Below, in pieces: positions 2,640 through 57,117 of a stretch of 57,117 bases of DNA. Origin of the DNA: a virus. Both the position numbers and the translations under genes were made by a program. The stretch is from IMG/VR virus record IMGVR_UViG_3300030381_000056; one strand, given 5' to 3'. Below the pieces are notes generated by a model that saw nothing but the letters and a program-made list of their open reading frames with translations, was not told where the DNA came from and did no database searches. The first letter of the stretch is position 1; each line of letters opens with the position of its first letter.

Positions 2640-3475
2640 TTATTTCTCCTTTTTTGGATGTGATAATTCAAAATTAGCCTGCATTGCCATAAGTCCTGCA
2701 AGAAATGCCTTTCTTTGTTTTTTCAATTCCTTTTCGTTGCTAGCAGTTTCAACACGCTCCATAATAGGCTTGTCTATATACTTCGATTGTGCTTTTCTGC
2801 CGTTTAAGCAATGGTCTACAGCAAAGATTAATGCAGATATTCCGTAATTTCCCCAACGTTGCCATGAGTTCCTATCTTCTTCCTCTTTTTTTAGTTTATA
2901 TCCTTTGTAGCACCACTCTAATTTTTTAGGATTCAGATGTTTGAACTCTTCTATCGAGATCCCCATGGAAAAAGCAAATGGAAAATATTCTTCCCATATT
3001 ATTTTGTGCCAGTCGATTTCTTCTTGTGATCCTGTGGCATCTTCGTTACCTTGCTGTCCTCTTTCTCCATTTCTTCCTTGGTCTGCGTCATCATTTCCGT
3101 CAGACCCGACAGTTCGAAAAAACCGTCTTCTTTCATACAGTCTGTCAGTTCTCCATACAGCTTCACAAAAGAAAGACCGTTTGCTTTCATGTATTCTTTC
3201 ATTAAAGCATTGGATTCATCCGGTGTAATACCTTCGTGGTTTTCGATAAGACCAGCATAAAAAGCCGTTTTGCATACATGAGGAAATTCTGCAAGCATAT
3301 ATCCGCTACCATCTACAATTTCTTCTGGTGTGGGCTTCTGTACATTTTTTGCTTTTTTAGCTACATAGCCACCGGAAAGCATAAGAAACATCTTTTGAAT
3401 CAAATCCTTGCACTCCACAGCACCGAACCCAAACTCTAAAGTATATTCAACATCATTAACTAAAATCTTCTTCAT
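2640..3475 (-). CDS. Tail assembly chaperone -1 frameshift fusion product (lambda G-T-like), predicted ~278 aa
   Basis: ORF 2640..2966 is in the -1 frame relative to the chaperone. That frame is stop-free upstream through the heptamer T TTT TTC (3116..3122). Position between major tail and tape measure genes is canonical. Confidence 0.6.
2999..3475 (-). CDS. Tail assembly chaperone (G-like), 158 aa
   Basis: MKKILVNDVEYTLEFGF..., acidic C-terminus, directly downstream of the major tail gene. ATG 3475 has GGGGAAAGGA upstream; the longer ATG 3499 sits inside a hairpin. Confidence 0.7.
   Translation of the reverse strand: MKKILVNDVEYTLEFGFGAVECKDLIQKMFLMLSGGYVAKKAKNVQKPTPEEIVDGSGYMLAEFPHVCKTAFYAGLIENHEGITPDESNALMKEYMKANGLSFVKLYGELTDCMKEDGFFELSGLTEMMTQTKEEMEKEDSKVTKMPQDHKKKSTGTK
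3116..3122 (-). promoter_or_regulatory. Candidate -1 ribosomal slippery heptamer U UUU UUC
   Basis: Zero frame reads GGT TTT TTC GAA (..DGFFE..); X XXY YYZ pattern; the -1 frame is open from here to 2640. Confidence 0.5.
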
Positions 3476-11209: not shown

Positions 11210-11650
11210 TTAATTTGCCATGTAACGATCGAATGCTTTTCTTACGCTATCCTCTGTGTTTCCACCACCGATTCTATCAGCAACCTTGTTCCATGATAAT
11301 TTTTCAATAAAACGTAAATTGATGATCCGTCTTATACGGCTGTCCTGAACGCTTGCAATAAATTCTTCGACTTCATTATTTTTTTGCAGTAAATCGTCCT
11401 CTAAAAGCTGTAAAGTAGCCTTCCTGGAATAAAGCAGTGTCCGTTTTCTGCTGTACTCCGGATAAGGGAATCCTTCAATACGAAAATGTTCAGTGCCGCC
11501 GCATCCACCTGATACGCTGTCAACAACATTCCCATCCGATTCAATTTTTCTGATATCCGATTCAAGTTTTTTAATCTTCTGCTGTACTTCTTTGATTTCT
11601 TCCTGTAAATCTATGTATTGAGACAAAACATCTTTATTCACCATAATCAA
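11210..11650 (-). CDS. Sigma-70 region-4-like HTH protein with N-terminal coiled coil (RinA/DUF1492-like late regulator?)
   Basis: C-terminus DSRIRRIINLRFIEKLSWNKVADRIG..NTEDSVRKAFDRY resembles sigma region 4. Confidence 0.45.
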   Translation of the reverse strand: MIMVNKDVLSQYIDLQEEIKEVQQKIKKLESDIRKIESDGNVVDSVSGGCGGTEHFRIEGFPYPEYSRKRTLLYSRKATLQLLEDDLLQKNNEVEEFIASVQDSRIRRIINLRFIEKLSWNKVADRIGGGNTEDSVRKAFDRYMAN

Positions 11651-13401
11651 TACCTCCGTCCGAAAGAGAATGGGTTTTGAATTGCTTCTACTTTTGCTAC
11701 CCTGTTTCCGTTTGTAATTCGCAATGCAAAGTTTGAAAATACATCAGGTACATCATCTAACTGTTTTTTTCCTGAAACAGAATACCTTTTCAGTAACGAC
11801 ATCATTACTCCGTATGGCTCATTCGGTTTGTAACGTGACGGATCCTTGAAAATAACGTGTTGCAATATCCAGTTAGAACACTGGAAAATTCTTGCTTCTT
11901 TGTTTGTCTCAGTCGGTGTGTCTGTGATGTTGCATATCCATCCTTTACTCTCTACACGCTTATTTACTTCCATTGCCACACGGTCACCACCGGCATTACG
12001 TTCAAATTCGCACTCTTGCACTTTATTATTAACAAGTACATTTGCCGCATTTTCATACTGCATTTCATAATCTGCTGTATTGTCGCACACGCAATCAACG
12101 CAGTAATAATCTTCTCCGTACTTTTGTAATACCGGAAGAACAAAAAAGTCTGTTCCTTTTCCCTTGGTATCGCATTGCCCAGTAACGATTTCCGGCTCGC
12201 CATGAGGAAGATTAAGATAACGTCTGATTTTTTCTTCCGGGAATAACAATCCCTCACGTTCAATAGGCTCTTGCTTATAAAGACACCTATAAGAGATTTC
12301 ATCCATGAGCAATTGTTGATCTTCAAAAAAAGCAACCGTAAATCCGGAAAATTCGTAGTCAAAATTGCTTAATCCTGTTTTGGGGTCAATATCCGGCACT
12401 GCAATTACTTTTACTCTCGGATTCCCTTCATACATATTTTGGATCCGACCGATTACATCATTTACGCTCCACCTGGTTGCAATATGGATCTCTTTGCAAT
12501 TCTTTCCGTCAGTATCTTGTGTCTTTCTTTGCCTTGCATCTACCGCATACTTGTCCCACAGTTTATCCAAAATTATAGGATTCATAGCTTCTTCGATGCC
12601 ACCGATCATGTCATCTACGAACAAAAACTTAGATGCACGTACTTTACCAGCATTTTTACTTCCTACGGATGTGCACTGAACTGATGGAAATGGTTTATAT
12701 TTTCCGATGTTAAACTGTTCCATTTTTGCGTTAGTACTGGTAACAGAAAGATTTGGGAAGATTTCATTCCAAGTGTACTCGTCAGAATTTGTGCAAATAT
12801 CGTACACACCGTCATAGTACATACGTGTAATATCTCCACTGTGGGAGTAAAAAAGGTTGAAATCTCTCGGAAACCATCCTGCTACCAATGCATTCAGCAT
12901 TTTTTCAACCGTAGTTTTTCCGGCACCAGGGATAAGTGACACGCAGAGAATGTCGTATTTATCATCAATCATTCCTTGAATGGCATTCATTAGACCGATT
13001 TTAAGAAATTGCTTTCTACGTGGCATGTAGAACCGCTCTCTAGGTTCTCTTTTCTTTTCCAAGTATCGGTATGCACTGTCCACAACCTTATTTTGTGCTT
13101 CTAGTAAAAGAACATCGTATAATTTATCTGTCAGAGAATAGTGCGTCTTGTTTGCAAAGGAATACTTTTCCAAATCCCATATGGTTCCTCCGGTTCTTTC
13201 CATACAGAAACGCTCTACAATGCCTTTAGAACGGTTTGTTATCTGTAAGCCATAAGTTATATCCTTTTCACCGTTAATTGCCACTCTACAGGCTTCTATG
13301 TACGCATCAATGACCTGTTCATCAATCCCATGTTGCTCTATGTACTTGTCGTAACTGTTTACTGCCGATATAAGGCTCTGACTTGCCAAAAGAAAAAGCA
13401 C
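11647..13401 (-). CDS. terL: Terminase large subunit
   Basis: Walker A LIPGAGKTT, Walker B FLFVDDMIG, ATRW coupling motif, acidic nuclease half; 584 aa. Start codon is non-ATG (GTG/TTG) and uncertain. Confidence 0.85.
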   Translation of the reverse strand: MLFLLASQSLISAVNSYDKYIEQHGIDEQVIDAYIEACRVAINGEKDITYGLQITNRSKGIVERFCMERTGGTIWDLEKYSFANKTHYSLTDKLYDVLLLEAQNKVVDSAYRYLEKKREPRERFYMPRRKQFLKIGLMNAIQGMIDDKYDILCVSLIPGAGKTTVEKMLNALVAGWFPRDFNLFYSHSGDITRMYYDGVYDICTNSDEYTWNEIFPNLSVTSTNAKMEQFNIGKYKPFPSVQCTSVGSKNAGKVRASKFLFVDDMIGGIEEAMNPIILDKLWDKYAVDARQRKTQDTDGKNCKEIHIATRWSVNDVIGRIQNMYEGNPRVKVIAVPDIDPKTGLSNFDYEFSGFTVAFFEDQQLLMDEISYRCLYKQEPIEREGLLFPEEKIRRYLNLPHGEPEIVTGQCDTKGKGTDFFVLPVLQKYGEDYYCVDCVCDNTADYEMQYENAANVLVNNKVQECEFERNAGGDRVAMEVNKRVESKGWICNITDTPTETNKEARIFQCSNWILQHVIFKDPSRYKPNEPYGVMMSLLKRYSVSGKKQLDDVPDVFSNFALRITNGNRVAKVEAIQNPFSFGRRY

Positions 13402-21429: not shown

Positions 21430-21508
21430 ACGGGTGACAGGTCCAGGACTTGCACCGCAAAAGTGAACAAGTGTTCCGCACCTTGAATCGGTCTGAAAAA
21501 AATCAGCG

Positions 21509-21735
21509 AAAAATCTCTGAAAACGGATTTTTCAGCTTGAAAAGTGCTACCCCGGGGGGTATTTTGAAAAAGGCATTATATTTTGACGAAAAAATTTTCT
21601 TTCAAAAACCTCTGAAAACGAGATTTTCGGTTGAAAATGCAGACCTACGGGGGTATCAAAAGAAACACATTAAAATTTTTTACGAAAAAAGTCTCAAAAA
21701 ATGAGATTTTTAATAAACCTATAGGGGGAAATATT
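21509..21735 (+). repeat. About 2.4 tandem copies of a degenerate 95-bp unit forming the leader of the downstream gene
   Basis: CTCTGAAAACG at 21515 and 21610. Each unit has an A/T hairpin and an ACC(Y)A..GGGGG box. The last GGGGG is the RBS of ATG 21736. Confidence 0.7.
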
Positions 21736-22596
21736 ATGAATTGCTACAAGTGTGGTAAAGAAATGAGAGTTGTTCCGGAACAGGTGGCTACGGATGAGAA
21801 AGGTCTTCCTGTGTATCACAGAATAGGTTATTGTGATTCTTGCATGTCTAAATTTGATATTGACATTTTGGAACAGCAAAAAAATCAGACAGTTCAGAAC
21901 AATCAAAAGCCGCCTAAGAAAAAGCAGAGCACATTAAGTACGTTGGCGGCTGTGTTTTCTATTTTGACATTTACTATTCCGGTTGCTGTTATTCTTGCAA
22001 TAATCGACATTGCTACTGGTGATAAAAAGAATAAATTGCATACTGGTTCGTGGTTTGCCATTATATGGTGTGTTCTTGCAATCATAGTTTACAACATAGG
22101 TAACAAACCTGGTGACGATGTTTCTATACCTATTGCAGAAGTAAAAGTTTCTGTAGAATCTACAGAGGAACAGACACCGGAGCCTATCATAAATAAGTCA
22201 GATACTGTCATTTATCCCGGTTACACATTTGATGCAGACGGTTTACAAGTCACAATAAATGACTTTGACCTTAACTTCACCGATTATGAGGATGAATACG
22301 GTTGGAACACTCCGGCAGACGGAATGAAATACATAATGATTGATGTTTCCTATCAGAATAATAGCAAAGATGATAAGTATGTAAGTATCTATGATTTCCA
22401 GTGCTACGCAGACAATACAGATTGTGAACAAAATTACAGTGTTGTGGAAAACTCTTCGTTAAATGCGAATATTTCAAGTGGAAGAAATACCTCTTACAAA
22501 ATTGCATTTGTAGTTCCACAAGGTGCACAGAGTATTGAACTGGAATATGAAACAAGTATATGGACCGGTCATAAAGAGGTCATAAAATTACAATAG
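21736..22596 (+). CDS. Zinc-ribbon / TM / DUF4352-like extracellular domain protein (possible superinfection-exclusion or surface moron)
   Basis: MNCYKCGKEM...CDSC, two hydrophobic segments, C-terminal beta-rich domain (..YIMIDVSYQNNSKDDKYVSIYDFQCY..). Confidence 0.55.
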   Translation: MNCYKCGKEMRVVPEQVATDEKGLPVYHRIGYCDSCMSKFDIDILEQQKNQTVQNNQKPPKKKQSTLSTLAAVFSILTFTIPVAVILAIIDIATGDKKNKLHTGSWFAIIWCVLAIIVYNIGNKPGDDVSIPIAEVKVSVESTEEQTPEPIINKSDTVIYPGYTFDADGLQVTINDFDLNFTDYEDEYGWNTPADGMKYIMIDVSYQNNSKDDKYVSIYDFQCYADNTDCEQNYSVVENSSLNANISSGRNTSYKIAFVVPQGAQSIELEYETSIWTGHKEVIKLQ

Positions 22597-22611
22597 AATA
22601 TAGGATTTTAA

Positions 22612-22637
22612 GGGCATCCGCAAGGGTGCTCTTTTTT
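22612..22637 (+). terminator. Rho-independent terminator
   Basis: GGGCATCC-gcaa-GGGTGCTC followed by TTTTTT. Confidence 0.65.
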
Positions 22638-22638
22638 G

Positions 22639-22667
22639 TTGCGAACCTACGTTCTTCATGATATAAT
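22639..22667 (+). promoter_or_regulatory. Sigma-A-type promoter with about 190-nt leader before the Rha-like gene
   Basis: TTGCGA - 17 nt - TATAAT. Confidence 0.55.
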
Positions 22668-22860
22668 ATGTGTCAGTTAGGAAGTCTTGCACCACGTCCG
22701 GCGAGTGAAAGCTGATTAGACAGCCTAGATTGTAACCAAGACCCGGAATAAAGACAGACCAAAAAAAGATTGGAAGCTCGCTACTCCAACAGTAACAGGG
22801 GTAGTGGGCTTATTTTTATGCTCTTCTGCCCCATGACAATGTATTTGTTGGAGGTAGAAA

Positions 22861-23508
22861 ATGTTAGTTGAAATCAAAACAGTAAACAAAGAAGAAGTAA
22901 CCGTTGTAACAAGCCTTGATGTGGCTGAAACGTTTGGAAAAGAGCATAAACGTGTCATGCAGGACATAAGAGAACTTGATTGTAGTGAAGAATTTAGAGA
23001 GCACAATTTCGTGCCTATCTCTTATACAGATAGTATTAACAGGAAAAAACCTATGTTTGTTATGACAAGAGACGGCTTTACTCTTCTTGCTATGGGATAC
23101 ACTGGTGAAAAAGCAATGCAGTTCAAGGAAGCCTATATTAAGCAATTCAAAGCAATGGAAAAAGCCCTTATTGGGAAAATACGAGAACGTGAAAAGGGAA
23201 TCGGTGTCCGCAGGGTACTTACGGATAGTTTGCAGAGGACTTCCGAAAATGAACGGATGCACGGTCATGCATACTCTACCTACACCGATTTGATTTATAA
23301 ATCAGTATTCGGAAAAACCGCAAAGCAATTACGGCTTGACCTTAATATTGGCAACAAAGAAAACATCCGGGATTATCTGACTGAGGAAGAACTACTGTTA
23401 GTTCAGAATGCAGAAATGCTTGTAAGTTCACTGGTTGGATACGGTTGGGGATACGGAGAAATTAAGGAATTTTTGGAAAATAAGTCGGTGAATAAACTGG
23501 TCGGATGA
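22861..23508 (+). CDS. Rha-family phage regulatory protein
   Basis: N-terminus VTSLDVAETFGKEHKRVMQDIREL...FVMTRDGFTLLAMGYTGEKAMQFKEAYIKQF matches the Rha family pattern. Confidence 0.75.
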   Translation: MLVEIKTVNKEEVTVVTSLDVAETFGKEHKRVMQDIRELDCSEEFREHNFVPISYTDSINRKKPMFVMTRDGFTLLAMGYTGEKAMQFKEAYIKQFKAMEKALIGKIREREKGIGVRRVLTDSLQRTSENERMHGHAYSTYTDLIYKSVFGKTAKQLRLDLNIGNKENIRDYLTEEELLLVQNAEMLVSSLVGYGWGYGEIKEFLENKSVNKLVG

Positions 23509-24035: not shown

Positions 24036-24701
24036 ATGGAAAATATTGTAAACGTTGAAGGAACAGAGTTAGATGTCAGAGAATACAATGGTCAGATGGT
24101 TGTTACTTTTGACGATATCGACCTTGTTCATAAAAGACCACACGGTACTGCAAGAAATGCTTTTAAAAGAAATAAAAGGCATTTTATAGATGGTGTTGAT
24201 TATTTTGTGTTGGAAAAGGAAAATTCTAATGTACACGAAACGTACATTAGAAATATTGATATTCCAAACAGAGGTATTACTGTATTTACCGAGAGTGGAT
24301 ACCTTATGCTTGTAAAGCCATTTAAGGATGATTTATCGTGGGATGTTCAGAGGAGGCTTGTAAATGCTTATTTTGCATTAAAAAATCAACAACCCACCGC
24401 CGCAATCGAGGAAAAGCCGACATTAGAGTTTGAAACAGACTGGTTCTGCATCAACCGTGGAAAAATCAACTACGTCTGCCGTTGCTACGATATTACATCA
24501 AAGGAATATATGCATCACTTACTTGAAGTTTTGGGAAGAACGTATAATTTTGATGAAGCGAAGAGGATTTACAGTGCAACGACCGGAAACTGGAAATGCA
24601 GAAATTCCGAAGTAATCACCTACTTCCCACAGCTTTCAGACCTTGCATCTAAAATTCTTCAAAAAGATTTAGCGGACTGTGCAACAGAAGAGACCCCATA
24701 A
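24036..24701 (+). CDS. ORF6N/KilA-N-type DNA-binding (antirepressor-like) protein
   Basis: VREYNGQMVVTFDDIDLVHKRPHGTARNAFKRNKRHFIDGVDYFVL fits the ORF6N domain pattern. Confidence 0.6.
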   Translation: MENIVNVEGTELDVREYNGQMVVTFDDIDLVHKRPHGTARNAFKRNKRHFIDGVDYFVLEKENSNVHETYIRNIDIPNRGITVFTESGYLMLVKPFKDDLSWDVQRRLVNAYFALKNQQPTAAIEEKPTLEFETDWFCINRGKINYVCRCYDITSKEYMHHLLEVLGRTYNFDEAKRIYSATTGNWKCRNSEVITYFPQLSDLASKILQKDLADCATEETP

Positions 24702-29280: not shown

Positions 29281-29302
29281 AAAAAAAGACGGTCTACCCG
29301 TC
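29281..29302 (-). terminator. Rho-independent terminator downstream of the integrase/attP region
   Basis: Minus strand GACGG-gtaga-CCGTC followed by TTTTTTT. Confidence 0.6.
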
Positions 29303-29372
29303 ATGTATCCGTCACATTTCATTCACTATAAAATTATTGGAATCTTTGCAAAAAACTCCTTTCGTTTTAGGC

Positions 29373-29557
29373 TTGACTACTATTTTGACTACTATTCGAC
29401 TACCCATTGCCCGGGAATGCCCATTTTATCAGCTTTTTCGAGTGGAAGCAAGGGGGCTCGAACCCCACTCTATTCCTCTTACTTTCCGCATATTTACTGG
29501 CTTTCTAGGTGTTTTTTGTTGATTACTTTTGACTACTTTTGCAAAAATAGTAGTCAA
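29373..29557. mobile_element. attP: tRNA 3'-end core (about 29443..29470) flanked by six arm-type TTGACTACT(A/T)T repeats
   Basis: Minus strand ..GGGGTTCGAGCCCCCTTGCTTCCA is a T arm plus acceptor 3' half with no 5' half. Repeats at 29373, 29385, 29396, 29519, 29529 and inverted at 29547. Adjacent to the integrase gene. Confidence 0.65.
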
Positions 29558-29558
29558 A

Positions 29559-30779
29559 TCACCTTGCCTGTAAATCTGGGATACTACTCAAAATAGACGA
29601 TTTCTTTTCAATGGTTTTCCTATTCCTATGATAGTGTATTTCTGAAGTCATAATATCTGTATGCCCCATCTGATCCATGACAAGTCTTTTGTCTACATTG
29701 TTATCCATAAGAATAGTTCCATATGTCTTTCTTACTTTGTGCGGTGGCTTTGGATAAATTTTCAATTTTCTGCAAAGCCTTTTTTGCCTTTGCCTAACCG
29801 CCTGTGCAGTAACCCTGATATCATTTTTGGTAAAAATGTAATCTCCAAATGGATTCATGTACTTTATTTTATCACAAATCCATACATAATCATTCGGTAT
29901 AATTGCTGTTCTGATTCCTGCCTTAGTTTTAGGATACTCTTTTACTTCAACAACATTGTTTCCGTTTTCGTCTTTATACTTCGTCTCCGTTCTGCGAACG
30001 TTAAAAGTATTATCAAAAAAATCGGAATGTCTTAATGTTACAACTTCTCCGATACGCACACCAGTTAAAAACATAAGCAATATAGCAATATTAGAAGTGT
30101 CAAGGTGGTTGACAAGATATTTAATCATTACATCCGTTTCATATTCGTCGAATACCTCTTCATAGTCTTCCTTTATTACTTTTTTAAAATCACTATCAGA
30201 TACGTCAAGATTCTCAAAAAGTTCTACAATATTAAAATCAATAAGTTTACGTTTTTTCGCCCGTTTAAGGAAGGTTCTTGTAATTCCTTTTAGACCGGAA
30301 AAAGATTTAGGTGTCAACTCTTTATCGGCAATTTCTTCCTCTAAAAAATCCCCCCATTCATCTTCTGATATTGATTTTATTCTTCGCTTACCTAACTCTC
30401 CATAGTGTCTTAGAAAATATCTCTCATCTCTATCGTATGTTGCTTTGCATATCTTTTTAAGATACAATCTTCGGTCTTCACATTCGTAAAACACTTCTGT
30501 AACTGTTGGATTTTGCTCTTTTTGGTAGTAAAACTTAATAACTTCTTCTTTGAGATCTTCCTCGCTTTTCTTTTTTACAAGTCTCCTTCCTTTTTCCTCA
30601 TCCGGCAAATAAGTTCTCCAGTATCCGTCTTTGCCTTTGTTGATCGCGTATTGATGTTTCTTTAGATACTCTTCTTTCTTTTTCATTTCAATGCTTTTTT
30701 GCAAAGATTCCGTGTCAATCATACCATTGCTAACGGCATATTGCAATATTTCCATATTAGAAAGTTCCAAATCTATCAC
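29559..30779 (-). CDS. int: Tyrosine recombinase / phage integrase
   Basis: 406 aa; C-terminus ..HKVRKTYGTILMDNNVDKRLVMDQMGHTDIMTSEIHYHRNR (R..H..GH..Y catalytic pattern); N-terminal arm-binding-like DGYWRTYL. Confidence 0.85.
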   Translation of the reverse strand: MIDLELSNMEILQYAVSNGMIDTESLQKSIEMKKKEEYLKKHQYAINKGKDGYWRTYLPDEEKGRRLVKKKSEEDLKEEVIKFYYQKEQNPTVTEVFYECEDRRLYLKKICKATYDRDERYFLRHYGELGKRRIKSISEDEWGDFLEEEIADKELTPKSFSGLKGITRTFLKRAKKRKLIDFNIVELFENLDVSDSDFKKVIKEDYEEVFDEYETDVMIKYLVNHLDTSNIAILLMFLTGVRIGEVVTLRHSDFFDNTFNVRRTETKYKDENGNNVVEVKEYPKTKAGIRTAIIPNDYVWICDKIKYMNPFGDYIFTKNDIRVTAQAVRQRQKRLCRKLKIYPKPPHKVRKTYGTILMDNNVDKRLVMDQMGHTDIMTSEIHYHRNRKTIEKKSSILSSIPDLQAR

Positions 30780-30978
30780 CTTCTAACCGCTTAAGCTTAT
30801 TTTTTATAGACCTCACTCTTCTTTCTACAGTAGTTACAGAAATGGAATGTCTAAAGGATATTTCTTTTTGAGAAATTCCCCTAGACAAATCCCAAAACAC
30901 TTTCTCTTCCTCTTCCGTAAAATTGGCGTTCCGGAAGATTTCATCAAGTTCTGGCTTAGTCAGTTTTGACAACTTCAT
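30757..30978 (-). CDS. Sigma-70 region-4 / LuxR-type HTH protein (possible excision or integrase regulator)
   Basis: FWDLSRGISQKEISFRHSISVTTVERRVRSIKNKLK; overlaps the int start by 23 nt. Confidence 0.5.
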   Translation of the reverse strand: MKLSKLTKPELDEIFRNANFTEEEEKVFWDLSRGISQKEISFRHSISVTTVERRVRSIKNKLKRLEGDRFGTF

Positions 30979-39918: not shown

Positions 39919-40106
39919 CTCTTTTCAAGTTCTGGCTCTTTCTTTTTGCAATGAGTAGCACCAAATTCTGACTTTCCTGCATATTCGTAGCAATCAACAC
40001 ATTTCCATTTACAACTCTGATATGGTTTGTGAGTACGTCCGTTGATTGAGTGCATTGTGTTTGGGTACTCATTCCAACAGCTACAATCGTAATTTTTTTC
40101 ACTCAT
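39915..40106 (-). CDS. Cys-rich small protein (63 aa)
   Basis: Seven Cys; co-oriented. Confidence 0.45.
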   Translation of the reverse strand: MSEKNYDCSCWNEYPNTMHSINGRTHKPYQSCKWKCVDCYEYAGKSEFGATHCKKKEPELEKR

Positions 40107-48547: not shown

Positions 48548-49270
48548 CTAAACACTTCTCTGTGTTTCTATTTTTCTTCTAATTGCATCAATACCTTTTT
48601 GATAAACAAGTGTTTTTATAGATATATGTTCCTCCCCATTCTTGGTGTATTTCTGCTCTATTACACGGAACCATCCGCAATCAACATATTTTTGATACGG
48701 CACATTCCATTTATTTAACATTCCTGCTTCACGCAGAAATGCAAATAAATTATTTCTTCCAAAGTCCTTAAATCCGAGAATTTTTGCCACTTTATCCATC
48801 GGAATTGCGGTTTTGCTATCTGCCACTGCGTCAAAGAAATCTGCTTTTGGTCGCATATCTTCAATTTGCTTCTCTTTTTGTGCAATAATGTTCTGTGCTA
48901 CAATAAGTGCGTTCGCTACAATCTGCTCTGGTGTCAAATTCTCCTGATTTGCTATGTACCCACCATTCTTGCGTATAGACGGCAAAACATCTGATGTTAC
49001 CCAGTGTTTGAACCTCTTTGCTGAATCAAGTTTGCTTCCGATAATTGCAGAATATAAACCGCTTTCATTTATTAAAGAAGACTTCATATTCATACCATCC
49101 AAAATGGATGATTTGGAATCTTCCTCGTCTATGCGCTTCATCATATTACTCGTCTGCGCATACCCAAGTTTGTCGGCAACATCTTTTGCTACAAACCAAG
49201 GCTCGCCATCAATAGTTTTTATTCTGATTGTCCCAAATTCATCTGAATTAAATACCTGTAATTCTTCCAT
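48548..49270 (-). CDS. Antirepressor (BRO-N domain plus KilAC/ANT C-terminal domain)
   Basis: LQVFNSDEFGTIRIKTIDGEPWFVAKDVADKLGY (Bro-N); C-terminal half is phage antirepressor-like. Confidence 0.75.
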   Translation of the reverse strand: MEELQVFNSDEFGTIRIKTIDGEPWFVAKDVADKLGYAQTSNMMKRIDEEDSKSSILDGMNMKSSLINESGLYSAIIGSKLDSAKRFKHWVTSDVLPSIRKNGGYIANQENLTPEQIVANALIVAQNIIAQKEKQIEDMRPKADFFDAVADSKTAIPMDKVAKILGFKDFGRNNLFAFLREAGMLNKWNVPYQKYVDCGWFRVIEQKYTKNGEEHISIKTLVYQKGIDAIRRKIETQRSV

Positions 49271-49281
49271 GTTTCTCCTTT

Positions 49282-49458
49282 CTATTCAGTTTTAACTCTT
49301 CTTGAATCTTCAAATGCCACAAGGTCATCCTCTGTGATCCTGTATTCTCTTCCTAACTTGATTGCCCCAAGTTTTTTTTGACGAATCCATTCCCAAACAG
49401 TAATGACTTTTACCTTGTATCTCTCTGCTACCTCTTCACAAGTAAACATTTGTGCCAA
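49282..49458 (-). CDS. Excisionase-family (HTH_17/MerR-like) small DNA-binding protein; Cro/Apl-like first gene of the leftward operon
   Basis: (MAQ)MFTCEEVAERYKVKVITVWEWIRQKKLGAIKLGREYRITEDDLVAFE; AAGGAG RBS favours TTG 49458 (the ATG is at 49449). Confidence 0.6.
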   Translation of the reverse strand: MAQMFTCEEVAERYKVKVITVWEWIRQKKLGAIKLGREYRITEDDLVAFEDSRRVKTE

Positions 49459-49485
49459 AATATCACTCCTTTCCGTAAATAATAC

Positions 49486-49514
49486 TTGTATATACCTCGG
49501 TTTAGTGATATAAT
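49486..49514 (+). promoter_or_regulatory. Rightward promoter (extended -10) for the XRE gene
   Basis: TTGTAT - 17 nt - (TGa)TATAAT. The spacer contains the operator-like ACCTCGGTTTAG. Confidence 0.55.
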
Positions 49515-49600
49515 CTCCTTTGTCGAACGAGTTACATCTTTTTAACGAAGTATTTTTCTAGAAACTATTTTTATATTTCGTTTTGCCGAGGTATGTACAT

Positions 49601-49629
49601 AGTATATCTCGCTAAACCGAAGTTGTCAA
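49601..49629 (-). promoter_or_regulatory. Leftward promoter for the HTH_17/antirepressor/early operon
   Basis: Minus strand TTGACA - 17 nt - TATACT. The spacer contains ACTTCGGTTTAG. It faces the rightward promoter about 115 bp away. Confidence 0.55.
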
Positions 49630-49673
49630 TAGTCTATTTCGTTATGCCGAAATATTTTTTAAGAGGTGATATT

Positions 49674-50393
49674 ATGTACAAAACTTTCGAAAAATTGTGT
49701 GAATTAAAAGGAATTACACCATATAGGTTTGGTAAAGATACTGGTGTTAACTCTTCTACTTTAAGCACATGGAAAAAGAAAAATTCTATGGCAGATCCGA
49801 AGACCTCTCAAAAAGTCTGTGAATACTTTGGAGTATCTATGGACTTCTTAATGGGAAAAACTGATAAAATTGTTTGTGAAGAATGTGGAACAGAATACAA
49901 TCCATTTGATGACTTTGATTGTGCTATTCACGAAAATGTTCATAAAACTATAGAAGCAGCAGAAAAATTAAATATAGACTTGGTTCCATATAAGGATATT
50001 ATAAAAAAACGAGTAGACTATAAAATTAAATTAGAAGATGGAACATTTGACTTCGAAAATGATTTGACTGATTATTTGGAAGTGCGATATTCTGATTATA
50101 TTTATAACAATGTTGGTAGCACTAATCTCATTGACAGAATGGGTTATTATAAGAAATGCCTTGTTGAGATTATCAACAAGGGATTTGTGCCGGAAAATAA
50201 TATAAACACTTTTGTAGAATCATTTGGATTAAATAGAGATTACATAGACATGAACGGAGCTTTTATAGCCAGAATAAGCAAAAATTATGATGTGATGAAA
50301 CTTGCTAAAATTGCCGAAAAGCTTCCACCAGAAATGCTCAATATGCTTTTGTTTCAAGCGGAAGCTTTTTACGATAAATATACCAAGGGGTGA
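49674..50393 (+). CDS. XRE-family HTH regulator with Zn-binding-like C-terminal extension (candidate lysogeny repressor)
   Basis: MYKTFEKLCELKGITPYRFGKDTGVNSSTLSTWKKKNS...VCEYFGVSMDFLMG; AAGAGG RBS. Confidence 0.65.
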   Translation: MYKTFEKLCELKGITPYRFGKDTGVNSSTLSTWKKKNSMADPKTSQKVCEYFGVSMDFLMGKTDKIVCEECGTEYNPFDDFDCAIHENVHKTIEAAEKLNIDLVPYKDIIKKRVDYKIKLEDGTFDFENDLTDYLEVRYSDYIYNNVGSTNLIDRMGYYKKCLVEIINKGFVPENNINTFVESFGLNRDYIDMNGAFIARISKNYDVMKLAKIAEKLPPEMLNMLLFQAEAFYDKYTKG

Positions 50394-50519
50394 TTATTCA
50401 CCTCTTGTTTTTTCTTTTACAAATTCATAGAACCACTGCAAAATATAGTTTTCATTTATGCTTCCAAACATATTTGACAACTCTTTTCTGTATTCTTCAT
50501 TTGTCATTTCTTTTTCCAT
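50394..50519 (-). CDS. Small acidic protein (41 aa) behind an SOS-box promoter
   Basis: MEKEMTNEEYRKELSNMFGSINENYILQWFYEFVKEKTRGE; GAGAGGGG RBS-like; below the ORF-track cutoff. Confidence 0.4.
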   Translation of the reverse strand: MEKEMTNEEYRKELSNMFGSINENYILQWFYEFVKEKTRGE

Positions 50520-50578
50520 CGTAACCACACCCCTCTCCCCTTTAATTCTCCGCAGAATCTAAAGTAGCGATACATCAC

Positions 50579-50607
50579 ATTATAGAACATACGTTCTAAA
50601 CAATCAA
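50579..50607 (-). promoter_or_regulatory. Leftward sigma-A promoter with a LexA (Cheo-box-like) site in its spacer
   Basis: Minus strand TTGATT - 17 nt - TATAAT. The spacer contains AGAACGTATGTTCT (GAAC-N4-GTTC, 50585..50596). Confidence 0.6.
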
Positions 50608-50612
50608 TATAT

Positions 50613-50641
50613 TTGACGCACGTTTTTTATTGTTGTAAAAT
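50613..50641 (+). promoter_or_regulatory. Rightward promoter for the CI-like gene (back-to-back with the SOS promoter)
   Basis: TTGACG - 17 nt - TAAAAT. Confidence 0.55.
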
Positions 50642-50754
50642 ATCAACAAAAAGAGGACGGTGAAAACGCCAATAAACACCGCCCTCGCCAGAACTTGATG
50701 TCCCTTGAAACAAGGGATGTTACAAGTGTATCATGTGAAAGGGGGATAATAAAC

Positions 50755-51546
50755 ATGATGAAAAAAGACCGAATCAAAGAAATATCGACACATCTATCAG
50801 TCAACCGTGCAAATTATATGTTAAGTTTTCGTGGGAATCTCCACGAATTTCTTAATGAGCCGGACATGACGGTGTACAAACTTGCAGATGAAGCTAATTT
50901 GCCTTATTCTACGCTTAATTCACTACTGTACGGTAATTCTAGCGACACGAAGCTATCGACCGCCGTTGCGCTTGCTAGAGCCTTTGGAATCAGCGTAGAT
51001 GAACTGGTAGGCTGTGGTACTATGGAAGATAAGATGTTGGAATCTGTCAAGATATGCCGTAGTCTGCCGGAACACTCTCTTTACCTTATCCGTTACTTCA
51101 TCCGTCACCAAGCTAAAATCTATTCCAGTCTTGAAAAATCGCAAAAGTATATTTCTGTCCTCAAACCGCAACTTGTAAATGGAATTATCGCAACCACAAA
51201 TGCTGTGGAACCAATTTGCATAGACAATTTACCGGAAGATATAAAATCCAAGGCTTATATCGGTTTAAAAATTCCGTGCGACTACTATATGCCGTTTTAT
51301 CTGCCTGGGGAAATTATTATCCTTTCCGCAGATCGTGAACCGCAAGACGGTGAACGATGTATTGTGACCAGTAATGGTGGGATACAAATTGCCGTAAAAA
51401 CCCATATAATAGAATATGGCGTTAGAAAATGGAGATATGTTTCGCTCATGTCTCCGAACAGTATACTTCCGGAACACATAATTGATGACATGATAGGATA
51501 TGTGGTTGGTTTTGTAAATAATGATGGTGACTGGGGAATCAGATAA
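50755..51546 (+). CDS. CI-like regulator: XRE HTH plus S24-like C-terminal domain, apparently without the catalytic Ser
   Basis: ..MTVYKLADEANLPYSTLNSLLYGNS..LSTAVALARAFGISVDELVG. In the C-terminus, CDYYMPFYLPGEIIILSADREPQDGERCIV...AVK sits where LexA/CI have G-D-S-M-x-P. Confidence 0.6.
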   Translation: MMKKDRIKEISTHLSVNRANYMLSFRGNLHEFLNEPDMTVYKLADEANLPYSTLNSLLYGNSSDTKLSTAVALARAFGISVDELVGCGTMEDKMLESVKICRSLPEHSLYLIRYFIRHQAKIYSSLEKSQKYISVLKPQLVNGIIATTNAVEPICIDNLPEDIKSKAYIGLKIPCDYYMPFYLPGEIIILSADREPQDGERCIVTSNGGIQIAVKTHIIEYGVRKWRYVSLMSPNSILPEHIIDDMIGYVVGFVNNDGDWGIR

Positions 51547-51553
51547 AGAGATT

Positions 51554-51584
51554 AAGAGCATGGCTTTTACACCATGCTCTTTTT
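51554..51584 (+). terminator. Rho-independent terminator after the CI-like gene
   Basis: AAGAGCATGG-cttttaca-CCATGCTCTT followed by TTT. Confidence 0.75.
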
Positions 51585-55570: not shown

Positions 55571-57117
55571 TTAAGTAATAATCTGTAATCCCATAGTTTT
55601 CTGACCTCTTAAGCTTGCCCTTGCTATGTCTCTATCACCGATATTTACAGATGTTTCTTTTGCAAGTAATTGCTTTAACAGGCTGATTTCTTCTGCCATC
55701 ATACGCATTTGTGCTTCTGCCGTGGAATTGATAGCTTCTTTGATTCCTGTTATTTCAGCTCCACCGGCAACCGCTGTCTTACCACCTACTGTTCCGGCAA
55801 TCTCTGGCACTCCGTTTTCTCCTGCCATGAACATTGTGTATCGACTAGGAACGTAACCGCCTGTCTCAAATGTGGGGATTCTGCCAAGGTTTACACTTCC
55901 GCCCGGAACAAGTTCTTTTCCGAGTACAACAACCGGATCCCATGAAAAGTTTAACTTATCATTTATCCAGTTTGCAAACCTATTCCAAATTTGTTTGACA
56001 GCCTCTATTGCATTATTCCATGCATTAGATAATCCGTCTTTAATGCCACTCCATGTCCATTTTTCGGTAGTAAAATATGATTTTACGTTGTTCCACCACT
56101 TTGCAAAACCAATATTTTTCCACCATGCGGTAAATTCATTCCATTTCGTAGAAAGTGCGGTCTTAATATTTGTCCCTAATTGATTCCATTTTTCAGCAGA
56201 AAACCAAGGCTTGACAGATTCATTAAACCAGTTTTCAACAATAGGTTTTAAATTTTCAAACACTGATACTAAACCAAATGTATCATTTATGTCCAGTTTA
56301 AATTGTGATAAGAAATCAAAAAACTGTCTTATCGGCATTGTTTTTGTCAAAAAATCTGCCGCATCAGAGTTCATCTGTTTCCAAGCGTCAAAAAGTATTG
56401 AAAAATCTGTGTTTTTTATTGTATCAAAGAATCCACCTTCTCCAAAAAACGAAAAATTATCATATGTTTCTTTATCATCAGGGAAAAGTGCTTTACCTAA
56501 TGATTTACCTACATTAAATCCAATTTCCCAAGTAACAGAAGCTATTGCGATTGTAGGAACTATTCCTATGCTTGAACCAAGTACTGTGGCTGATAACTTA
56601 TCCGATATTTTTCCCCATATAATATCTCCCACACCAGTAAACTTCAAAAGTCCTATTGCCGTCAGAATCGTGGTTTCAATCGGTGCTGCATCGAAACTTC
56701 CTTTCCACAGATCGATTGCCGCATCTATGGCAGTTTCTATGAAATTTCCAGCAGATGTAAAAATGGCAGTCCAATCAATACCATTCAAGAAACTTCCTAT
56801 ATGTCTTCCGATTTTTTCCCAGTCCACAGAATCTATTGCTCTTGTAAACCAGTCAAAAATACCAGTTACTAGTTTGGACGTATCCATTCCGGCAACTTTA
56901 AACCATGAATCAGAATCAAACTTAAATGCATACGCCAGATCTTCTATAATATCTTTTACTGGTTTAAACACCTTGCTTACTTTGTCAGCCCAACCCATAG
57001 CTGTATTCTGCATCTTGTCAAATGCTTCTTGCCATACTTTTTCGTATTCAGCAGTAGCATCCATGATTTCCTTGGTAAGGTCAATTCCTGATCCACCAGC
57101 ACCTGATGTTTTTCCGG
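55571..57117 (-). CDS. Tail tape measure protein, C-terminal part (continues from 1702..1 across the junction)
   Basis: Frame is open upstream of the listed Met to the window end. W/F-rich repeats (..KWNEFTAWWKNIGFAKWWNNVK..) and a Gly-rich C-terminus are typical of TMPs. Confidence 0.8.
   Translation of the reverse strand, partial: GKTSGAGGSGIDLTKEIMDATAEYEKVWQEAFDKMQNTAMGWADKVSKVFKPVKDIIEDLAYAFKFDSDSWFKVAGMDTSKLVTGIFDWFTRAIDSVDWEKIGRHIGSFLNGIDWTAIFTSAGNFIETAIDAAIDLWKGSFDAAPIETTILTAIGLLKFTGVGDIIWGKISDKLSATVLGSSIGIVPTIAIASVTWEIGFNVGKSLGKALFPDDKETYDNFSFFGEGGFFDTIKNTDFSILFDAWKQMNSDAADFLTKTMPIRQFFDFLSQFKLDINDTFGLVSVFENLKPIVENWFNESVKPWFSAEKWNQLGTNIKTALSTKWNEFTAWWKNIGFAKWWNNVKSYFTTEKWTWSGIKDGLSNAWNNAIEAVKQIWNRFANWINDKLNFSWDPVVVLGKELVPGGSVNLGRIPTFETGGYVPSRYTMFMAGENGVPEIAGTVGGKTAVAGGAEITGIKEAINSTAEAQMRMMAEEISLLKQLLAKETSVNIGDRDIARASLRGQKTMGLQIIT

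Follow-up and report, generated by a model that had tools for sequence, protein, structure and literature searches.

The window analysed here, 57,117 nt in length, is the complete, circular genome (about 57 kb) of a temperate siphovirus-like phage. Its integration site adjoins a MatE gene of Waltera intestinalis (Lachnospiraceae, human gut), a host read from integrated copies of the phage. One locus in its immunity region raises a double question: how such a prophage would sense DNA damage, and on which of two neighbouring regulators a 41-aa protein encoded between them would act. Prophage induction in gut Clostridia shapes the response of the microbiome to antibiotics, genotoxins and inflammation. 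To our knowledge, hardly any work has addressed the molecular switches of phages from Lachnospiraceae.

Layout of the immunity region

A first-pass annotation of the locus had described two back-to-back promoters, a palindrome in the spacer of one of them, a small acidic ORF, and genes for an XRE-family protein and a CI-like protein. Each was found in place, and they are listed here with the other features on which the argument draws.

49674-50393, plus strand: XRE-family repressor gene, 239 aa, with HTH_3, a CxxC/H zinc-finger-like stretch and a helical C-terminal part
50394..50519, minus strand: small ORF, ATG at 50519 and stop at 50394, 41 aa; candidate antirepressor
50579..50607, minus strand: promoter P_small, TTGATT (50607-50602), 17-nt spacer, TATAAT (50584-50579)
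50584-50597: putative LexA (Cheo/SOS) box AGAACGTATGTTCT, within the P_small spacer
50613..50641, plus strand: promoter P_CI, TTGACG, 17-nt spacer, TAAAAT; back-to-back with P_small
50653..50727, plus strand: conserved two-hairpin element in the 5' leader of the CI-like gene
50755..51546, plus strand: gene for the CI/LexA-fold regulator (CI-like protein), 263 aa, with an XRE HTH, two long helices and an S24-like beta domain
51554..51581: bidirectional terminator hairpin, 3' of the CI-like gene
50384..50407, plus strand: hairpin and T-run that form the XRE gene's intrinsic terminator and lie across the 3' end of the small ORF
49533, 49574 and 49635 (49533..49655): three copies of the motif TATTTCGTTWTGCCGARRTAT, about 21 nt, candidate XRE operators between the XRE and early genes
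49601..49629, minus strand: early (lytic) promoter, TTGACA, 17-nt spacer, TATACT; 11 of 12 consensus matches; divergent from the XRE gene
49282..49458, minus strand: first early gene, a 58-aa HTH_17 (Xis/MerR-like) protein in the Cro position
48548..49270, minus strand: Bro-N/KilAC antirepressor-family gene, second in the early operon
22639..22667, plus strand: second LexA-box promoter, TTGCGA, 17-nt spacer, TATAAT, with a TG extension; box CGAACCTACGTTCT at 22642-22655
22861..23508, plus strand: Rha-like regulator/antirepressor gene (phrog_2657, E=2e-67), 3' of the second LexA-box promoter

The immunity cassette thus has four parts: the XRE repressor gene, the candidate operators with the divergent early promoter, the small protein, and the LexA-box promoter. 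The -35 hexamers of P_small and P_CI lie 5 bp apart. The XRE gene ends one base short of the stop codon of the small ORF, and the two genes are convergent; the same layout, with the small ORF and the Cro-position side on either flank of the XRE gene, is seen at loci L082, L092, L095 and L099. The hairpin shared by the XRE gene and the small ORF has its T-run on the plus strand and none on the minus strand, and the single other minus-strand terminator-like site, at 50181..50159, is weak. A transcript from P_small would, as had been suggested, enter the XRE gene in antisense.

A probable LexA box within the promoter of the small gene

P_small matches the sigma-70 consensus at 10 of 12 positions. 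The sequence AGAACGTATGTTCT is a perfect palindrome that fills its spacer and shares the first base of the -10 hexamer. Its central N4, GTAT, fits the RNRY of the Cheo consensus CGAACRNRYGTTYC, which has a GAAC-N4-GTTC core. That core occurs three times in the window, against 0.55 expected, and three or more occurrences arose in one of 100 shuffles. The second copy lies in the promoter that precedes the Rha-like antirepressor gene, and this box and gene are either both present or both absent among relatives. The third, at 21465, has no promoter around it and is taken as chance. Promoter-like hexamer pairs are common in this AT-rich DNA (19 seen versus 11.8 expected per 3 kb), so the weight of the case rests on the conjunction of features and on their conservation.

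Conservation is extensive. Of 78 related phage contigs, 77 have an exact GAAC-N4-GTTC in this spacer and the last has one mismatch; variation in the box among the 78 is essentially confined to one N4 position. Both P_small hexamers are kept across these contigs, and P_CI is conserved too. The position of the box is also unchanged in phages whose CI-like proteins are 44-58% identical and whose promoter flanks differ (L085, TTGACAAAAGAACATCTGTTCGATATAAT; L087, TTGACATACAAGAACGTACGTTCTGTAAT). It is likewise present in phages that have no CI-like gene (L092, TTGACAAAAACGAACATCAGTTCTATAAT; L099, TTGACATAAACGAACATATGTTCTATAAT). In the TLEYLHTFIK subfamily, six of the eight box-positive variants have no CI-like gene within 1.5 kb; among all 14 variants of this subfamily the box is absent in five and degenerate in one. 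Small ORFs that have no upstream box are found also at L082, L091 (Dulem virus 39) and L095-98. Beside at least nine exchanged XRE cassettes the box is invariant, and its constancy despite these swaps argues that it is the operator of neither the XRE nor the CI-like protein.

The design of the promoter recurs in bacterial chromosomes. A scan of GTDB genomes for TTGA-N7-GAAC-N4-GTTCTATAAT returned matches in Bacillota and Chloroflexota, and the genes 3' of these matches include those for UvrB, RecA, RmuC and an IMS-family (Y-family) polymerase. Lachnospiraceae and Oscillospiraceae are included among the matched genomes. The first-pass reading of the palindrome as a box for host LexA is therefore strengthened by conservation in relatives and by a design shared with chromosomal SOS genes. 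Because the box is found in 77 of 78 relatives, in diverged phages, in phages lacking the CI-like gene and in the promoters of SOS genes, LexA control of P_small is well supported by comparative sequence evidence. Since the box overlaps core promoter elements, LexA bound there would exclude RNA polymerase.

A family of tiny two-helix proteins

The 41-aa protein has nine acidic and six basic residues and a pI of 4.85. A start at the alternative GTG, at 50528, would extend it to 44 aa. The Shine-Dalgarno sequence of the window variant is separated from the ATG by about 10 nt, a rather long distance. The AF2 model is a helix hairpin (pLDDT 92). The earlier remark that the protein resembles nothing recognisable was borne out by searches of Pfam and PHROG, and by Foldseek with the 41-aa model, none of which returned a match; tblastn of the consensus small protein against GenBank phages likewise returned none. 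The protein nevertheless belongs to a large unannotated family. At least 13 variants, 16-59% identical, keep both the ORF and the Shine-Dalgarno sequence, and share the pattern E-[DE]-Y-[KR]-x-x-I-I-x-h-h-x-x-I-x-[DN]-x-x-x-L-x-Y-h-Y-x-h-h. Further loci were sought with a degenerate DNA pattern. The two-helix family comprised 141 clusters in one search and 877 in another. Codons within variants show 14 synonymous versus seven non-synonymous alternatives. These comparisons support the view that the small ORF is genuine, encodes a conserved protein and is sited as the gene of a LexA-controlled antirepressor would be.

Co-variation of the small protein and the XRE repressor

Each variant of the small ORF occurs with one XRE type. 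In all 11 cassette pairs whose XRE proteins are at least 60% identical, the small proteins are 61-89% identical, and these pairs extend across phages in which the CI-like protein is 41-47% identical or missing. Conversely, the CI-like protein is at least 94% (94-100%) identical in 36 phage pairs whose small proteins are just 18-69% identical. By Mantel test the small protein correlates, modestly, with the XRE protein (r=0.22, p=0.014) and not with the CI-like protein (r=-0.04, p=0.66). The small ORF and the XRE gene are swapped as one cassette beside a near-constant CI-like protein.

One comparison suggests where the two proteins might meet. XRE types 18 and 26 share 27% identity over their full length and about 58% over the last 33 residues, as counted from their alignment; this C-terminal tail is their best-conserved part, and the small proteins paired with them are 59% identical. 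A profile comparison by hhalign of the small-protein family with XRE C-termini gave no similarity (probability 1%), so that a simple origin of the small protein as a dimerisation-helix mimic is not supported, nor is SinI-like mimicry of XRE C-terminal helices.

No S24 domain was found in the XRE proteins with Pfam. The 15-nt core of TATTTCGTTWTGCCGARRTAT is confined, in the window, to the intergenic region between the XRE and early genes, and its copies are probable XRE operators. On this evidence the XRE protein is probably both the immunity repressor and the target of the small protein, and most likely it is this non-cleavable protein for which an antirepressor is required. Neighbouring genes can, however, co-vary through physical linkage in a recombining cassette, with no interaction between their products.

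The CI-like protein and its leader

The CI-like protein matches HTH_26/HTH_3 in Pfam, with an S24 match below threshold (E=0.038). Foldseek aligned its model with lambda repressor (3bdn, E=3.6e-4), the lambda C-terminal domain (2hnf/2ho0), LexA C-terminal domains at moderate target-normalised TM-scores of 0.5-0.7, and BFVD entries named 'Repressor protein CI' (E=1e-9). A sequence search of PDB gave matches to the HTH only, the best being SinR, and hhalign of the family with E. coli LexA gave no meaningful alignment. The HTH is well conserved across the family.

The first-pass annotation held that the autocleavage serine is missing and that CDYYMP stands where LexA and CI have G-D-S-M-x-P. The loss holds; the register does not. 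A profile alignment with lambda CI, full-length though weak (E=0.008), puts Lys172 opposite Ser149 of lambda and the G-x-S-M position at G170-L-K172-I. There is no serine under either register, and none is conserved in the C-terminal domain among 25 homologues. The same weak alignment places K217, with low confidence, opposite lambda K192, in a column where most phage members have K and the distant ones R. The homologues have no conserved Ala-Gly cleavage site: C87-G88 of the window protein, directly after the HTH and ahead of the two long helices, is replaced by AG, VS, SD, SE, AC and others. Judged by sequence and model, then, the protein appears to be a pseudo-protease, a CI/LexA fold that has lost its Ser nucleophile.

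A GTDB genome scan for the CI-like protein found nothing, and blastn of the region against GenBank phages gave no match; tblastn of the protein against GenBank phages found Dulem virus 39 only, which shares the module and in which the box is absent. Distant homologues are chromosomal singletons with no small ORF alongside. The gene adjoins the small ORF in the window group and at L082, L085, L087, L090 and L091. The module of LexA box, small ORF, XRE gene and Cro-like gene occurs with no CI-like gene at L092-94 and L099-101 and in six further variants. The best reading is that the pseudo-protease is an accessory regulator and not the partner of the small protein.

The two-hairpin element in the leader contains a 12-mer, GCCAGAACTTGA, at 50687-50698, which recurs upstream of the integrase gene and at 39925. 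A search of Rfam with the region gave sub-threshold chance hits only. RNAalifold on a MAFFT alignment of the element found no consensus structure because the stems are out of register in the alignment; the folds are single-sequence predictions. It is conceivable, and in our view quite improbable, that the pseudo-protease and this element form a second layer of control on the same SOS promoter. The protein might keep LexA-like contacts with RecA filaments or with the LexA dimerisation domain and so tune occupancy of the box, or might instead bind the 12-mer. The logic would be near that of GIL01 gp7 but carried out by a LexA paralogue, and the phage would read DNA damage through two coupled LexA-fold proteins besides its cassette-specific small antirepressor.

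A model for induction and its alternatives

The reading that we favour, and consider reasonably likely, is that the small protein is a LexA-derepressed antirepressor of the non-cleavable XRE repressor, with the CI-like protein in an accessory role. In the lysogen, LexA on AGAACGTATGTTCT would shut RNA polymerase out of P_small. Upon DNA damage, active RecA would stimulate self-cleavage of LexA, and P_small would fire. In the manner of AimX with AimC, the small protein would bind the cognate XRE repressor, probably in the C-terminal part through which the repressor oligomerises. Release of the repressor from its operators would open the early lytic promoter, leading to expression of the HTH_17 gene in the Cro position, the Bro-N/KilAC gene and the remaining early genes. 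Convergent transcription into the XRE gene and same-strand read-through into the early operon may contribute. Three further genes of antirepressor families are present in this phage, so the main role in induction may fall to another protein. The earlier proposal of SOS induction through a small antirepressor is thus retained on the strength of the LexA box and the conserved ORF; its tie to a non-cleavable CI-like protein is not, as the small ORF co-varies with the XRE gene and the module exists without the CI-like gene.

That tie was the model implied by the first-pass annotation, in which the small protein would be an antirepressor of the CI-like pseudo-protease, itself unable to self-cleave. 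The two genes do diverge from back-to-back promoters, lie next to each other in several phage groups, and the CI-like protein has the CI/LexA fold with the nucleophile lost. But near-identical CI-like proteins stand beside very different small proteins, the module is found where no CI-like gene is, and the distant CI-like homologues are solitary, all of which makes this pairing highly improbable. The palindrome itself might be an operator for a phage regulator (CI-like, XRE, Cro-position protein or other) and not for LexA. Phage operators are often palindromes of 14-17 bp, the CI-like HTH is well conserved, and a 123-aa XRE subfamily has TGAAC-N4-GTTCA in its XRE/DUF739 intergenic region; a core of this kind may therefore be bound by a phage repressor. 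We regard this as very unlikely: the box has one copy at P_small and none elsewhere in the switch region, it is retained next to at least nine XRE types, whether the early genes are of the HTH_17 or the DUF739 kind and whether or not a CI-like gene is present, and an identical promoter/box design serves chromosomal SOS genes. As a CI-like operator it is rejected since the box is present without that gene, and as an XRE operator since it is constant beside those XRE types and the probable XRE operators are unrelated to it in sequence.

Two further explanations accept LexA control. One is that RNA acts, not protein: transcription from P_small, which aims at the 3' end of the XRE gene, would collide with or be antisense to it, and might read into the early genes further along the same strand, bypassing the repressed promoter, the ORF being incidental. 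The lack of a minus-strand T-run at the shared hairpin fits this explanation, and antisense control is the older model for aimX. In phi106 that model was considered and set aside: on removal of the AimX start codon or recoding of the overlap, the transcript alone has little effect (bioRxiv 10.1101/2025.11.23.689978). Here, moreover, the ORF is kept together with its Shine-Dalgarno sequence and the amphipathic pattern of two helices at identities of 16-35% and over hundreds of clusters, which argues for selection at the protein level. An effect of RNA alone is accordingly unlikely, although an RNA mechanism may coexist with the protein mechanism. The other explanation gives the SOS-induced protein a different function, such as modulation of host LexA or RecA in the manner of GIL01 gp7, a block of cell division like that exerted by other small proteins of the SOS response, or phage exclusion. 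The protein has no homology to any characterised protein, the phage already has its three antirepressor-family genes, and small LexA-binding phage proteins are known (PMC4551915). A host-directed protein, however, would be expected to be conserved within the phages of one host, and no gene of the region varies more than the small ORF, which follows repressor type; the fixed place of this ORF, convergent with the repressor gene, is the one that AimX occupies. We consider such a function decidedly unlikely.

Most likely, then, this locus uses a known way of waking prophages, a LexA-controlled antirepressor, here by means of a large unannotated family of tiny proteins. If antirepression of the XRE protein is correct, a single, readily recognised signature (a consensus promoter with a Cheo box in its spacer, followed by a two-helix ORF of 35-55 aa convergent on an XRE repressor gene) would explain DNA-damage sensing in many gut phages with non-cleavable repressors. 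It would give a function to some 900 clusters of tiny unannotated proteins, and would mean that the AimX-type antirepressor design exists without arbitrium and beyond Bacilli. The swapped XRE/small-ORF cassettes in near-identical phages of one host offer natural combinations, cognate and non-cognate, on which specificity could be studied.

Comparison with known systems

With lambda CI, LexA and UmuD (S24), the CI-like protein has in common the HTH and an S24-like beta domain. It differs from them in lacking the Ser nucleophile and a conserved Ala-Gly, in having K or R at the Lys position, and in the two long helices between its domains.

In SinI-SinR of Bacillus subtilis, a small helical antagonist acts on the helical oligomerisation domain of an XRE-type repressor. 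SinI is homologous to the C-terminus of SinR and is not under LexA control. The small-protein family, in contrast, shows no similarity to XRE C-termini by hhalign.

Coliphage 186 Tum and the Gifsy antirepressors belong to Gram-negative hosts, with a LexA box of the CTG-N10-CAG type. They and the Fels antirepressors follow the same logic as that proposed here, an antirepressor under a LexA box set against a non-cleavable repressor (Lemire et al. 2011, PMC3121763). Those proteins are larger and have no sequence relation to the small ORF, which has no Pfam or PHROG match; unlike the small ORF, their genes are not convergent on the repressor gene within the immunity cassette.

Sar-SroF of SPbeta/phi3T offers a Gram-positive case, with a small phage-specific antirepressor, a Cheo-type SOS box and cognate specificity (bioRxiv 10.1101/2025.11.27.690993). 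There the repressor, SroF, is a monomer with an integrase fold and Sar acts as a DNA mimic, whereas the repressor here is an XRE HTH protein whose likely interface is its C-terminal tail.

In the phi106 family, a LexA site precedes a 29-aa AimX gene, convergent on and overlapping aimC, which is followed by a cro-like aimL (Kabel et al., bioRxiv 10.1101/2025.11.23.689978). AimX-type proteins, of 29-80 aa and mostly helical, diverge fast and track repressor clusters (bioRxiv 10.1101/2025.11.23.689978), and the window phages share this co-variation of small protein and repressor. Compared by description, the window and aimX-aimC-aimL have the same gene order, a tiny helical ORF, and a short HTH repressor with no autocleavage domain. 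There, AimR/AimP lie upstream; the window family has no adjacent arbitrium genes, and its upstream neighbours are the CI-like gene or late/lysis genes. The hosts are Bacillus (Bacilli) there and Clostridia here. The window repressor is longer than AimC, at 239 aa with a zinc-finger-like insert, and the window adds to the AimX-type module a pseudo-S24 regulator and a structured element at the promoter.

Organization of the switch region

A reading of the sequence, with a listing of its ORFs, domains and promoter-like sites, bore out the first-pass annotation's description of this region: a promoter with a palindrome in its spacer, a 41-aa ORF antisense to a repressor-like gene, and a CI-like gene with a back-to-back promoter of its own.

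Features of the phage genome and its switch region
11647-13401, terminase
22639-22667, promoter TTGCGA-17-TATAAT, with box CGAACCTACGTTCT (22642-22655) inside it
29559-30779, integrase
30944-30955 (minus), 39925-39936 (minus) and 50687-50698 (plus), copies of the 12-mer GCCAGAACTTGA
49533-49655, XRE/early intergenic region, three copies of a motif of about 21 nt, TATTTCGTTWTGCCGARRTAT, flanking the early promoter
49629 to 49601, minus, early promoter, divergent from the XRE gene, 11 of 12 matches
49674-50393, plus, XRE/HTH_3 gene, 239 aa
50384-50407, hairpin across the stops of the small ORF and the XRE gene, T-run on the plus strand only
50519 (ATG) to 50394 (stop), minus, small ORF, 41 aa, purine-rich Shine-Dalgarno stretch upstream
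50607 to 50579, minus, P_small, the predicted promoter of the small ORF: TTGATT 50607-50602, 17-nt spacer, TATAAT 50584-50579; sigma-70-type, 10 of 12 matches
50584-50597, perfect 14-nt palindrome AGAACGTATGTTCT inside the P_small spacer
50613-50641, plus, P_CI, TTGACG-17-TAAAAT, predicted to drive the 263-aa HTH protein
50653-50727, two hairpins and the 12-mer GCCAGAACTTGA in the CI-like leader, z=-3.4
50755-51546, plus, CI-like HTH protein, 263 aa, leader of about 107 nt

The stop codons of the convergent small ORF and XRE gene are one base apart, and P_CI lies 5 bp from the -35 of P_small. The window holds three GAAC-N4-GTTC sites, where 0.55 would be expected. Hexamer pairs resembling promoters are by themselves common here (19 observed, 11.8 expected), so significance must rest on conservation.

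Conservation and identity of the putative LexA box

An exact GAAC-N4-GTTC occupies the P_small spacer in 77 of the 78 contigs of the phage group, the remaining contig having one mismatch. Variation inside the box is essentially confined to one N4 position across these contigs, the versions being AGAACATATGTTCT (n=41), AGAACGTATGTTCT (n=34) and AGAACGTATGTTCC (n=2). The box persists despite differing promoter flanks in phages whose CI-like proteins are only 44-58% identical; it reads TTGACAAAAGAACATCTGTTCGATATAAT in L085/86 and TTGACATACAAGAACGTACGTTCTGTAAT in L087/89, and L090 has one half-site mismatch. Phages without a CI-like gene, found through the small ORF alone, carry TTGACAAAAACGAACATCAGTTCTATAAT (L092-94) or TTGACATAAACGAACATATGTTCTATAAT (L099-101) before it. 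A further sample of one small-ORF subfamily gave a perfect box in 8 of 14 variants, six of these eight having no CI-like gene within 1.5 kb. The box is absent at the small ORF in five of the 14, and in L082, Dulem virus 39 and L095-98.

Because the box is constant beside at least nine different exchanged XRE repressor cassettes and is present where there is no CI-like gene, we rejected it as an operator of either protein. The pattern TTGA-N7-GAAC-N4-GTTCTATAAT, scanned over 185,579 species genomes, matched almost only in Bacillota and Chloroflexota, the phyla known to use a LexA motif of the GAAC-N4-GTTC type. Products encoded 3' of the matches include UvrB, RecA, RmuC, a radical-SAM protein and a number of Y-family (IMS) polymerases; many are from Lachnospiraceae, Oscillospiraceae and Ruminococcus. 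All four comparisons (78 contigs, phages with diverged CI-like proteins, phages lacking one, and the genome scan) agree with the initial reading of the palindrome as a LexA box, and LexA very probably controls P_small.

The small protein

The small protein has nine acidic and six basic residues (pI 4.85), and AlphaFold predicts a confident two-helix hairpin (pLDDT 92). It had been noted as resembling nothing recognised, which held: searches found no family match in Pfam or PHROG and no structural neighbour of the model in the PDB. In 80 close relatives, homology to the window ends just upstream of the small ORF or in its first codons, and where it breaks a different small ORF substitutes. This phage and diverged ones supply at least 13 variants of 35-55 aa. 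Their identity with the window protein is just 16-59%, but all retain a Shine-Dalgarno sequence, an equivalently placed ORF and a shared pattern, E-[DE]-Y-[KR]-x-x-I-I-x-h-h-x-x-I-x-[DN]-x-x-x-L-x-Y-h-Y-x-h-h. Alternative codons within variants are 14 synonymous versus 7 non-synonymous. From these comparisons we infer that the protein is real, fast-evolving and translated.

Profile searches recovered 141 clusters at 90% identity and 877 at 50%. Of the top-scoring members listed, nearly all measure 35-90 aa, and no Pfam family or informative name appears among the listed matches of the 141-cluster search. Some database members of 75-83 aa hold the motif twice in tandem, as two matched stretches. 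L095-L098 carry two paralogous small ORFs in one operon (2599-2715 and 3001-3117), separated by an 87-aa ORF; no LexA box precedes them.

Probable partner of the small protein

Each small-ORF variant pairs with one particular convergent plus-strand HTH gene or gene pair, and the CI-like protein stays 94-100% identical while these pairings change. Seventeen cassettes were compared by pairwise identities and Mantel tests. Where two XRE proteins are at least 60% identical (11 pairs), the small proteins are always 61-89% identical, also in pairs from phages that lack a CI-like protein or have CI-like proteins 41-47% identical; where the CI-like proteins are at least 94% identical (36 pairs), the small proteins share only 18-69% identity. 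Small-protein similarity correlates with that of XRE (Mantel r=0.22, p=0.014) and not with that of the CI-like protein (r=-0.04, p=0.66). The window XRE and its nearest type are 27% identical overall and about 58% over the last 33 residues (counted from the alignment); the corresponding small proteins share 59% identity. No sequence similarity emerged when the small proteins were compared with XRE C-termini. Physical linkage alone could yield this co-variation, so an interaction between the small protein and XRE is something we infer.

A domain search found no S24 domain in the XRE proteins. The three TATTTCGTTWTGCCGARRTAT copies, unrelated to the LexA box and without further copies elsewhere in the genome, are probably XRE operators. 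Given the missing S24 domain, the divergent early promoter, these intergenic copies and the cassette co-variation, XRE is the probable immunity repressor, and the swapped unit is read as a cassette of XRE, its putative operators and the small ORF.

Compared with window 49460-50560, L002-L080, whose CI-like gene and flanks are 94-100% identical, show at least nine unrelated versions of the XRE-to-small-ORF region; the swapped region sometimes holds a second small membrane or other gene. Recombination breakpoints fall within the opening codons of the small ORF or just 5' of them. These contigs amount to a naturally occurring collection of heteroimmune cassettes among phages of a single host.

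One subfamily has XRE repressors of 123-126 aa, and here the intergenic region between XRE and the cro-like DUF739 gene contains a palindrome of the type TGAAC-N4-GTTCA, whose core is that of the LexA box. It lies some 520-570 nt 3' of the start of the small ORF (L092, L093, L095-L101, L230, L243, L247, L255, L257, L259). Most of these loci have a perfect palindrome and a few have one half-site mismatched; it could serve as an operator for the repressor, as a site where LexA acts on the early promoter, or as both.

The CI-like protein and its leader

In the AlphaFold model of the CI-like protein (pLDDT 88), an HTH domain is followed by two long helices and a beta domain. Its Foldseek matches include lambda repressor, a lambda-186 hybrid, the C-terminal domains of lambda repressor and LexA (target-normalised TM-score about 0.5-0.7) and many models of viral proteins named "Repressor protein CI". 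A sequence search of the PDB recognised the HTH alone, and the Pfam S24 match fell below threshold (E=0.038). The first-pass annotation had placed a degenerate motif at the catalytic serine. That register is probably wrong, a weak profile alignment to lambda CI setting Lys172 at Ser149 and Lys217 at Lys192; its conclusion holds, in that 25 homologues share neither a conserved serine in the C-terminal domain nor a conserved Ala-Gly in the linker, and self-cleavage would not be possible.

The CI-like gene appears to be an accessory inserted between the late genes and P_small. Its most distant homologues (31-33% identity; L081, GCA_947631665.1, and L083) are single chromosomal genes in Clostridia, in surroundings that are not phage-derived. 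One has a Spo0A_C-domain gene and TrkAH as neighbours; the other adjoins genes for rubrerythrin/desulfoferrodoxin and for sugar-nucleotide functions. An HTH-S24-like architecture lacking the serine thus occurs outside phages as well.

The two-hairpin element of the leader keeps its fold with different stem sequences in 10 of 11 diverged versions, and it adjoins the -35 of P_small also where the phage lacks a CI-like gene. Its 12-mer is present in three genomic copies, with at most 0.27 expected. One copy is just upstream of the integrase, inside a 73-aa HTH ORF, next to another hairpin that shares the AACGCCAAT loop of the leader element. Rfam gave no family match; the element may be a CI-like binding site or an RNA element.

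Phage genome and host

The genome is complete and circular, its first 99 nt (1-99) recurring at 57019-57117 as a terminal assembly repeat. Nearly all genes are on the minus strand: tail genes run from 57064 down to 51961, oriented towards the CI-like gene, and early genes (an HTH_17 protein, a Bro-N/KilAC antirepressor, a lytic transglycosylase and others) from 49458 downwards. IMG/VR holds more than 180 near-identical contigs. Look-up of an integrase-adjacent phage protein gave circular and integrated forms, the latter bordering nrdD, pyrF, rlmL, rdgB and a MatE gene. These host proteins have exact matches that bear the name Waltera intestinalis (Lachnospiraceae, Clostridia, Bacillota), which identifies a temperate phage of a common human-gut Firmicute. 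Integration adjoins the MatE gene (L222, L225; window 29300-30978), and attP has to be located in the interval from about 29250 to the 3' end of the integrase gene (29559). The 73-aa sigma-region-4/LuxR-like HTH ORF (30757-30978) overlaps the integrase start.

The second LexA-box promoter (22639-22667, within the region 22610-23508) lies directly 3' of a terminator and is followed by a leader of about 190 nt, a Rha-like regulator/antirepressor gene and then an Ant-family gene (24036-24701). Box and Rha-like gene are both present in L223 and both absent from L222 and L224-226, so they behave as a mobile cassette. Nearby, three imperfect direct repeats about 81-95 nt apart (21496-21700; AAAA..TCTGAAAACG..ATTTT..) fill the region upstream of a phrog_806 ORF (about 21737-22596), whose product has a zinc-ribbon-like N-terminus and is predicted to contain a membrane segment.

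Proposed mechanism and comparison with known systems

We propose that LexA is released from the P_small box, that the small protein would then be synthesised and bind the XRE repressor, and that the early promoter would be derepressed; we favour this complete chain, with some reserve. The first-pass annotation had also raised antisense interference. With its T-run on the plus strand only, the 50384-50407 hairpin should terminate the XRE transcript and be a poor stop for minus-strand transcription. Antisense interference, same-strand read-through into the early operon, or both, may contribute alongside the protein; as the sole mechanism they seem unlikely, and in phi106-type arbitrium phages the antisense transcript is of little importance (bioRxiv 10.1101/2025.11.23.689978).

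Induction through the small protein has its closest likeness in aimX-aimC-aimL of those phages, which show the same order of LexA site, tiny helical ORF, convergent short non-cleavable HTH repressor, and divergent cro-position and early genes. In that system AimX, a protein of 29 aa, binds AimC at its C-terminal oligomerisation domain, AimX similarity follows AimC clusters, and the LexA site of aimX is reported to be likewise patchy (bioRxiv 10.1101/2025.11.23.689978). The general logic also matches that of the 186 Tum and Gifsy antirepressors (PMC3121763), as first suggested, and of Sar-SroF in SPbeta and phi3T (bioRxiv 10.1101/2025.11.27.690993). We found no description in the literature of such modules in Lachnospiraceae phages. 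Unlike the aimX-aimC-aimL phages, the window phage has no arbitrium genes. It differs from the compared systems in its Clostridium-class gut commensal host, in a small-protein family without detectable relation to characterised antirepressors, and in the LexA-fold pseudo-protease attached at the same divergent promoter.
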